Below, piece after piece: positions 3,902-4,158 of a stretch of 64,000 nt of DNA. The notes under the pieces are model-generated. The model was not told where the DNA came from and made no database searches. It saw only the letters and a program-made list of their open reading frames with translations. A program made the position numbers and the translations under genes. The DNA is from Candidatus Eiseniibacteriota bacterium (GTDB lineage Bacteria > Eisenbacteria > RBG-16-71-46), in NCBI GenBank assembly GCA_963717935.1, contig CAVQXP010000004.1, positions 1,984,001 through 2,048,000 on the forward strand. Reading direction: 5' to 3'. Positions within the stretch are counted from its first letter, which is position 1, and every line of letters starts with the position of its first letter.

Positions 3902-4003
3902 GAGCCAGCGGAGCGAGAAGACACGCGAGAAGCGAAGCGGAGCCACCTGTCGGGAAGATGGACGTACCCGCAGAATCCCTTGCCAAGTAAGGAGGTGGGC
4001 TTC

Positions 4004-4054
4004 GTGGATCTCATTCTCGTGCTCTTGGAATTCTTCGGCCGCGCGGGCTGGTAA
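4004..4054 (+). CDS. Unannotated 16-aa hydrophobic peptide MDLILVLLEFFGRAGW
   Basis: TAAGGAGGTG at 3988-3997, 6 nt before GTG 4004; TAA at 4052-4054; hairpin 4056-4080 follows; below ORF-track size cutoff. Confidence 0.75.
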   Translation: MDLILVLLEFFGRAGW

Positions 4055-4158
4055 TCTCGGTCCGCCTGTCCGGACCTGAGCAGTAAGCTCCGAAGTGGAT
4101 GCCGGTCTCTCCATCCTCCGCTTGCGGAACGACACCCGCCCTCCATGACCGACGACGC

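Follow-up and report, generated by a model that had tools for sequence, protein, structure and literature searches.

Comparative evidence for a 16-codon gene nested in a conserved RNA domain upstream of an HD-GYP gene in Candidatus Eisenbacteria

Does the DNA between two conserved genes of an uncultured bacterium hold a further gene of only 16 codons, and what would such a small product be good for? The question is raised by a 64,000-nt stretch of a Candidatus Eiseniibacteriota genome (contig CAVQXP010000004.1, positions 1,984,001 to 2,048,000; called the window in the following) with a G+C content of 71.7%. An original prediction, made from the letters of the window alone, had proposed an unannotated peptide gene, led by a Shine-Dalgarno (SD) sequence, directly upstream of the gene for a membrane HD-GYP protein. 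Its existence is borne out by a conserved open reading frame (ORF) in relatives. Judged by comparison of these sequences, positions 4004-4054 are a genuine protein-coding micro-gene that is kept across a whole uncultured lineage, represented by Candidatus Eisenbacteria metagenome-assembled genomes (MAGs). The small ORF is nested in an RNA domain of about 227 nt (3883-4109), located between the gene of a 243-aa protein, here termed UP243, and the HD-GYP gene. This covarying domain, which pairs with the ORF's own SD, is the larger feature and was overlooked in the original prediction. With a probability of roughly 0.4 we favor a reading in which a free amphipathic mini-peptide acts in trans and its translation is gated by the RNA fold. 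All features described lie on the plus strand.

The small open reading frame and its conservation

The SD core TAAGGAGGTG is located at 3988-3997 within the sequence TAAGGAGGTGGG (3988-3999), whose 3' half and spacer are at the same time the 3' strand of the helix P1 described below. A GTG start codon follows 6 nt further at 4004. From there the 16-codon gene runs to a TAA (4004-4054), encoding MDLILVLLEFFGRAGW with GTG read as Met; the terminal TGG TAA occupies 4049-4054 and the stop codon itself 4052-4054. SD, start, 16 sense codons, TAA and a hairpin at 4059-4076 had all been named in the original prediction and are all present in the sequence. The claim that no longer SD match exists in the window also proved correct, as the exact 9-mer AAGGAGGTG occurs only once in 64 kb; with up to one mismatch, 29 matches were counted compared to 8.65 expected from shuffles. 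It was likewise right that the list of ORFs misses the gene. With its minimum of 20 aa the lister does not contain the 16-codon ORF and shows only a 24-aa TTG-started version (3980-4054). Comparison with relatives places the true start at the GTG or ATG 6-11 nt after AGGAGG.

The relatives comprise 72 loci that were collected in one scan of species-representative genomes with the alignment of UP243, and nearly all of them are deposited as Candidatus Eisenbacteria MAGs. Two loci end too early, L071 inside the UP243 gene and L045 right after the SD, so that 70 of the 72 have readable DNA at the small ORF; together with the window this gives 71 copies. In each of these 70 loci AGGAGG is followed, 6-11 nt on, by ATG or GTG and by a short ORF ending in Trp-stop, which is more than chance would provide. 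The script used for this demanded Trp as last residue; in the raw locus rows TGG is followed by a stop codon in every row. AGGAGG is invariant in all 69 sequences of the whole-domain alignment, from which two loci (L049 and L060) were dropped by the anchoring regular expression, and it is found 15-176 nt past the stop of the UP243 homologue in 71 of 72 loci. Most copies consist of 16 codons (52) or 17 codons (12), two have 18, and 8, 12, 13, 19 and 25 codons occur once each, so that length changes are always whole codons. Start codons are evenly used (37 ATG, 34 GTG). As stop codon TAA prevails with 55 copies over TAG (10) and TGA (6). Since TAA was found in none of 22 long window ORFs with high G+C at third codon positions (GC3) and in only 5 of 71 stops of the neighboring gene, it is otherwise avoided in this lineage and is hence atypical as the stop of the small ORF.

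The C-terminal hexamers follow the pattern [FLMV]-[GTS]-[KR]-[AGSV]-[GS]-W, with [LF]G[KR]AGW in 55 of the 71 copies and [KR]-A-G-W in nearly all. Among the 52 copies of 16 codons, second codon positions are nearly fixed and third positions variable. Each of Gly12, Ala14 and Gly15 is encoded by two or three synonymous codons, and position 13 is Lys (AAG/AAA) in 35 and Arg (CGN) in 17 copies, an exchange that takes two to three base changes, for example from AAG to CGC. The ratio of nonsynonymous to synonymous changes (pN/pS, Nei-Gojobori) amounts to 0.52 for the whole ORF, 0.24 for codons 12-16 and 0.69 for codons 2-11. The check proposed with the original prediction, a search of homologous intergenic regions for a conserved short ORF with synonymous-biased change, thus gave a positive outcome in 70 of 70 loci with synonymous or conservative changes.

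Conservation could in principle concern only an RNA element, with the open frame being incidental in a genome of 72% GC. The region does lie inside a covarying RNA domain, and in GC-rich DNA frames stay open by chance; two of the reverse frames have no stop in 41 and 49 of 70 loci, respectively. One reverse-strand frame even gives a pN/pS of 0.54, practically the value of the whole ORF, which counts against an assignment as coding on the basis of this crude ratio. Coding is therefore assigned from the SD and the start, from a stop that stays fixed, from conservative replacements and from the stops that interrupt the reverse frames. An untranslated element is at odds with the invariant AGGAGG at its distance of 6-11 nt from a start that switches between ATG and GTG, and with a stop that always comes directly after TGG, be it TAA, TAG or TGA. 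It is also at odds with K/R swaps by two to three base changes next to Gly, Ala and Gly codons that vary synonymously, and with a length that varies by whole codons from 8 to 25. We consider this explanation very improbable.

Coding on the minus strand was rejected as well. The ratio does not exclude the frame with 0.54, but the three reverse frames are interrupted by stops in 21, 29 and 63 of 70 loci, respectively, and have neither a conserved start nor a conserved stop. Within the window the small ORF is in frame with UP243 and separated from it only by the TAG at 3899. A read-through product or C-terminal tail of UP243 was nevertheless dismissed, because the 71 copies have no fixed frame relative to the upstream stop (28, 23 and 20 copies in the three frames) and the UP243 homologues end at the same place. 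A transfer-messenger RNA was discarded too: ARAGORN returned nothing in 3000-5000, and the small ORF has its own SD and start codon.

In NCBIfam no family was obtained for stand-in translations of 24 and 25 aa (the TTG-started version of the window and the copy of L023); Pfam was run on the flanking proteins only. A literature search found nothing that joins 'Eisenbacteria' with 'small protein' or 'riboswitch', and the string GKAGW led to unrelated matches only.

The RNA domain around the open reading frame

The intergenic DNA between UP243 and the HD-GYP gene is conserved as nucleotides, whether coding or not. Covariation in the aligned loci demonstrates that a 14-bp long-range helix, P0, lengthened by the helix P0b (GGAGC/GCTCC), closes the domain. 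The 5' strand of P0, GAGACCGGTATCGA (3883-3896), pairs with its 3' strand TGGATGCCGGTCTC at 4096-4109. P0b is formed by the first GGAG(C) box (3901-3905), which overlaps the TAG stop of UP243 (3899-3901), and GCTCC at 4087-4091. In P0 all 14 pairs were scored on 69 sequences; 10 of them exhibit two-sided changes, and complementarity was found locus by locus. Examples are a pair with AU in 49, GC in 17 and other combinations in 3 sequences, and another one with AU in 26, GC in 24, GU in 16 and UA in 3. For P0b the four aligned pairs between GGAG (3901-3904) and CTCC (4088-4091) were scored, with 81.4% of the cells paired and two-sided changes in three pairs; this helix is also part of the minimum free energy (MFE) fold.

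Taking P0, P0b and the six core pairs of P1 (3942-3947 with 3993-3998) together, 88.6% of the cells pair in the 69 sequences, compared to 37-51% if the partner strand is slid by 1-3 columns. Two-sided changes occur in 14 of the 24 scored pairs, and the covariation score of 0.236 was not reached by any of 500 shuffles (0.159 ± 0.007). In the window, the domain (3879-4113) has an MFE of −103.7 kcal mol−1 versus −89.1 ± 4.8 kcal mol−1 for shuffles (z = −3.0), and P0, P0b, P1 and P2 are all contained in the MFE structure. The helices emerged only from anchored complementarity searches, the whole-domain alignment and a covariance model. In Rfam there was no match at gathering score in the whole window, and none at E up to 10 in 3700-4400, c-di-GMP riboswitches included.

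The P0 5' strand is marked by the motif GAGACCGRCA, the reverse complement of TGYCGGTCTC, which is found 35-59 nt after the small-ORF stop in most loci. In 37 sequences, among them that of the window, the motif overlaps with the final UP243 codons, and in 33 it is located 50-100 nt past the stop. The last UP243 codons thus double as P0 5' strand in about half of the loci. In eight more distantly related loci (L008, L010, L011, L013-L015, L018 and L056) UP243 runs about 7-11 residues further (..SAQEASGAKRS) through the first AGCGGAGCG repeat, so that these conserved nucleotides encode protein in some genomes but not in others.

The repeats of the interior are two near-invariant purine-rich elements, AGCGGAGCGA at 3907-3916 and AGCGAAGCGGAG at 3931-3942, with the consensus AGCGRAGCG. 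Their columns are invariant in 69-70 sequences, the linker between them is variable, and the repeat region contains only 5% U. Directly downstream, the anti-SD CCACC (3943-3947; CCCACC in most relatives) pairs with GGTGG (3993-3997) of the SD to form P1, with duplex energies of −15 to −19 kcal mol−1. In the window P1 can be extended as GCGGAG/CTTCGT, with a single G bulged out, across the spacer as far as the start-codon G. When the whole domain was folded with a partition function, the unpaired probability of AGGAGG was 0.26 in native sequences and 0.40 with shuffled flanks, the native value being lower in 62 of 69 loci.

Between the strands of P1 the hairpin P2 (TGTCGGG...CCCGCA, 3948-3972), which stacks beside P1, is conserved in position, while its sequence varies between clades. 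At least five pairs are formed in this segment in 69 of 70 loci, with a mean z of −1.37 and values below −1 in 44 of 70; the basal pair is UA in 36 and CG in 17 cases and unpaired in one. A covariance model of P1 and P2 built from 18 sequences gave exactly one match in the window and in each of the 70 loci (71 in total) and nothing else in 490 kb. The variable P2 loop of the window also holds a 10-codon ATG ORF (MDVPAESLAK, 3958-3990) that ends on the TAA opening the SD and is not conserved in the alignments of the relatives. Between P2 and the SD the sequence GAATCC (3973-3978, with a GAGTCC variant) is conserved in most loci; no pairing partner was assigned to it.

The hairpin behind the stop codon (GGTCCG 4059-4064, CGGACC 4071-4076) has a 6-nt loop. 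It lacks a U tract and was not called by the terminator scan. Only close relatives such as L004 share this stem, and other loci carry different hairpins there.

Possible roles of the peptide

Acidic residues (D/E) are found at positions 2, 6 and 9 of the peptide, in a spacing of i, i+4 and i+7, and the remainder of residues 3-11 is hydrophobic. For 40 distinct peptides the helical hydrophobic moment of residues 2-12 is 1.74, compared to 0.90 ± 0.44 for shuffled residues, and the mean net charge is −1.25. Judged from these sequences, the peptide is amphipathic and helical, with G-[KR]-A-G-W as its fixed end. It is not a secretion leader, nor is it a transmembrane segment, since its short length and its charges do not permit it to cross a membrane. 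The 'hydrophobic leader' of the original prediction was therefore not confirmed, the stretch in question being acidic and amphipathic instead.

The main suggestion of that prediction, an exported pheromone or autoinducer precursor, or more generally a precursor of a ribosomally synthesized and post-translationally modified peptide, draws on the shortness of the peptide and its conserved aromatic C-terminus. The Lys/Arg three residues before Trp also faintly resembles Lys-Trp cross-linked peptides. Such a precursor is hard to reconcile with a whole product of 16 aa (8-25 in relatives) that shows no division into leader and core and no secretion signal. R replaces K in 17 of the 52 16-codon copies, and the 24- and 25-aa stand-ins belong to no NCBIfam family. 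The neighboring genes encode an arginyl-tRNA synthetase (ArgRS), a PfkB-family kinase, the 243-aa protein, the HD-GYP protein and a sigma-54 activator; no maturase, radical-SAM enzyme, protease, exporter or other transporter adjoins. We regard a precursor of this kind as highly improbable. The second suggestion, a modulator of the adjacent receptor, would be a candidate role.

The combination of a fold that closes 5' to 3', a masked SD and a very short peptide rich in hydrophobic residues also calls to mind a type I toxin such as hok, Ibs or AapA1. There, a hydrophobic peptide is encoded on an mRNA that is kept inert by its 5'-3' fold and by SD sequestration, under antisense control. Toxin loci are usually patchy and multicopy. 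The present element occurs as a single copy, in all 70 loci at one and the same syntenic core position, and no second copy was found in the 64-kb window. Furthermore, the amino acids are conserved across the whole locus set, and the peptide with its acidic, amphipathic character and charge of about −1.25 is not transmembrane. We rate the probability of a toxin as very low.

What the peptide does we infer from its sequence. In the favored trans-acting reading, the closed fold would partly mask the ribosome-binding site by placing CCACC on the GGTGG of the SD, so that translation of the small ORF would be gated by the opening of P1. A factor or ligand would most obviously act on the two invariant AGCGRAGCG repeats. 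Once released, the peptide would work in trans, with residues 2-11 as an acidic amphipathic helix and with recognition through the fixed C-terminal G-[KR]-A-G-W. The likeliest partner would be the product of a flanking gene, either the HD-GYP membrane sensor or UP243 with its similarity to a LeuA regulatory domain. Three features place this reading first: a helical periodicity that is conserved, and a strong SD and an atypical TAA stop, which both fit efficient production and release.

Nearly as likely, if still doubtful, is a cis-acting leader peptide. The small ORF would then be an upstream ORF of the HD-GYP gene whose nascent G-[KR]-A-G-W end slows termination or senses Trp-tRNA. Occupancy by the ribosome would remodel the RNA domain or block Rho loading and in this way set HD-GYP expression. 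The small size of the ORF fits this, as does its placement in a 5' leader, on the same strand and with no terminator before the HD-GYP gene. In 68 of 72 loci the small ORF is followed by the HD-GYP gene; the remaining four loci end before reaching it. The position of the ORF is steady, and in most loci its stop precedes the P0 3' strand by 35-59 nt; this strand is mostly located 64-95 nt before the conserved N-terminal motif of the HD-GYP protein (66 loci and the window; the motif was not found in two loci). In the window the small-ORF stop precedes the HD-GYP start by 105 nt. Constraint is strongest nearest the stop (pN/pS 0.24 versus 0.69) and is kept in variants of 8-13 codons. Rho-loading sites are C-rich and G-poor, and the composition of the tract after P0 is suggestive of such a site (mean C 0.45 and G 0.21 in the first 30 nt, 69 loci). 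The basic-Ala-Gly motif just before the putative stall site resembles, by analogy, the arrest motif RAGP of SecM. A precedent is given by the 14-aa PepNL of Escherichia coli, which stalls at its own stop codon and regulates the downstream pepN (PMC11890864).

Several observations are not easily accommodated by a leader peptide. The masked SD is that of the small ORF and not that of the downstream gene. TAA is read by both release factors and suggests efficient rather than impaired termination, and it is not obvious what the conserved amphipathic periodicity of residues 2-11 would do in the exit tunnel. A ribosome positioned on the stop codon would cover about 15 nt downstream, and P0b and the P0 3' strand of the window sit 33-43 nt past the stop, so that the HD-GYP start has no evident direct structural connection to it. 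An alternative pairing of the purine repeats with the C-rich tract before the HD-GYP gene was tried and rejected. The window offers an 8-bp match, but the 69 loci as a whole behave like shuffles (mean z 0.23), that is, without specific complementarity.

The trans-acting reading has to face a number of points that weigh against it as well. Known functional bacterial proteins this small are rare, and leader peptides of this size are common. Constraint peaks beside the stop codon, as is the pattern of nascent-chain regulators, and the 8-, 12- and 13-codon variants (three loci) keep G-[KR]-A-G-W. Synteny is kept for every gene of the region, so that adjacency says nothing about the partner of the peptide. 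That all copies end in Trp is partly due to construction, Trp having been demanded by the script. Regarding the gating by P1, changes in the P1 core are one-sided only and all preserve pairing by wobble (AU 61 and GU 5, CG 60 and UG 10). A possible covariation linking the SD-start spacer to the bases on the 5' side of the anti-SD was not retained, as the effect is weak: cognate P1 duplexes average −17.2 and non-cognate ones −15.9 kcal mol−1, with a median rank of 0.47. The accessibility of the start codon in the 69 loci did not differ from the shuffled-flank control. Plain RNAalifold on the MAFFT alignment of the leader returned only eight pairs and no two-sided change, and the 91.2% of cells that pair in the covariance-model alignment lean towards the model, to which this alignment was fitted. 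Throughout, the evidence is comparative and in silico and comes from MAG sequences only.

Flanking genes and comparison with known systems

The upstream gene UP243 (3170-3901) encodes a conserved 243-aa protein with a clean GC3 signal, its last codons overlapping the P0 5' strand. It belongs to no Pfam or NCBIfam family. Homologues number 757; among the 120 matches listed, lengths range from 209 to 291 aa, all proteins are unnamed and the source MAGs are labeled Eisenbacteria or Gemmatimonadales. The closest protein (P0001, 97% identity) is deposited as Gemmatimonadales, in contrast to Candidatus Eisenbacteria for nearly all loci, and the MAG labels thus disagree. The AlphaFold2 (AF2) model of UP243 (predicted local distance difference test score, pLDDT, 75.5) finds its best fold match in the PDB in the regulatory domain of LeuA/citramalate synthase (3f6h_B, target-normalized template modeling (TM) score 0.66, E 1.4e-4), and an Atlas cluster bears the same automatic LeuA-type name. 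It is the C-terminal half with two beta-beta-beta-alpha repeats that models like the leucine/isoleucine-binding regulatory or dimerization domain of LeuA and citramalate synthase.

Downstream, the membrane HD-GYP protein (4159-5484; Pfam HD_5, E 9.1e-35) is of the cyclic di-GMP (c-di-GMP) phosphodiesterase type, with HHE..DG.GYP in the translation, and its homologues start near ..RHPxxFRxYY. Positions 4110-4158 comprise the C-rich tract and the translation-initiation region of this gene. Within 3000-5600 no promoter-like site was found by a scan limited to the sigma-70 consensus, which is ill-suited to this phylum, and in the same range no terminator-like site was found between the small ORF and the HD-GYP gene. 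In 13 loci (L031, L035, L038, L043, L044, L046, L057, L058, L061-L063, L065 and L072) a conserved hairpin CACGAU-AAGGAC-AUCGUG precedes the HD-GYP start, with an SD-like AAGGA in the loop and the GTG start in the 3' arm; the sequence of the window differs.

Further upstream are the genes of ArgRS (374-2113) and of the PfkB-family kinase (1531-3039). The ORF of the latter overlaps that of ArgRS by about 580 nt. As the PfkB domain covers only residues 200-473 of this 502-aa ORF, its true start is probably much later than the start of the ORF. On the same strand, about 900 nt past the HD-GYP gene, a sigma-54-dependent activator is encoded (6400-7617; Sigma54_activat, E 2.5e-63).

From these neighbors a more elaborate version of the trans-acting reading can be drawn, which we consider improbable. 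In this three-part module UP243 would dimerize via its LeuA-type domain, bind the AGCGRAGCG repeats upon binding of a metabolite and open or lock the anti-SD helix. The peptide would in turn bind the HD-GYP enzyme via G-[KR]-A-G-W and set c-di-GMP turnover. If true, this would be a ligand-controlled RNA switch with a micro-protein output that regulates second-messenger signaling. A parallel is offered by TRAP and HutP, ligand-activated RNA-binding attenuation proteins that bind repeated purine-rich triplets. By analogy, the present locus would share invariant, single-stranded purine repeats upstream of an SD-sequestering helix and, going by the structural model, an always adjacent gene for a protein of amino-acid-binding type. 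UP243, in contrast, has no detectable relation to TRAP or HutP, and its binding of RNA is pure conjecture.

A gene of 16 codons escapes annotation pipelines, and very few such genes are known to be kept throughout a whole phylum-level lineage. The present one combines an unusually clear comparative signature with a covarying RNA housing of its own, and with it a phylum known only from metagenomes gains one candidate family each of structured RNAs and of small proteins. With an RNA of 227 nt and a peptide of 16 aa it offers a defined, synthesizable system for the gating of micro-protein synthesis by an RNA fold, which could separate a cis action on the ribosome from a trans action on c-di-GMP signaling proteins.

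Similarities to known systems exist on several sides. In the mRNAs of hok, AapA1 and Ibs a tiny peptide gene is likewise combined with 5'-3' closure and an SD-sequestering helix. Unlike these, the present locus is single-copy, syntenic and conserved in all loci, and its acidic amphipathic peptide has no membrane helix. KdpF, CydX and MgrB, whose genes lie next to those of their membrane partners, are transmembrane helices of about 25-50 aa. A tiny conserved gene adjoining the gene of a membrane signaling or transport protein is common to both, whereas a peptide of 16 aa with two or three acidic residues cannot span the bilayer. RNAIII of Staphylococcus aureus, which contains hld, has long-range closing helices and a short ORF for an amphipathic peptide, the translation of which is delayed by the fold. 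Judged by sequence, the present locus also appears to be a covarying structured RNA bearing a small ORF for an amphipathic peptide. It differs in its location between co-directional genes and in that no promoter (by the sigma-70 consensus scan) or terminator was called. With PepNL, TnaC and SecM it shares a small ORF (about 14-24 codons) that lies in the 5' leader of a gene on the same strand and is most strongly conserved next to its stop. It is unrelated to them in sequence. Here a conserved fold masks the SD of the ORF itself, most copies stop with TAA, the N-terminal residues have an amphipathic pattern, and no link was found from the terminating ribosome to the downstream start. The element is a putative riboregulated micro-ORF that resembles leader peptides, fold-back toxin mRNAs and RNAIII/hld and is a member of none of these groups.

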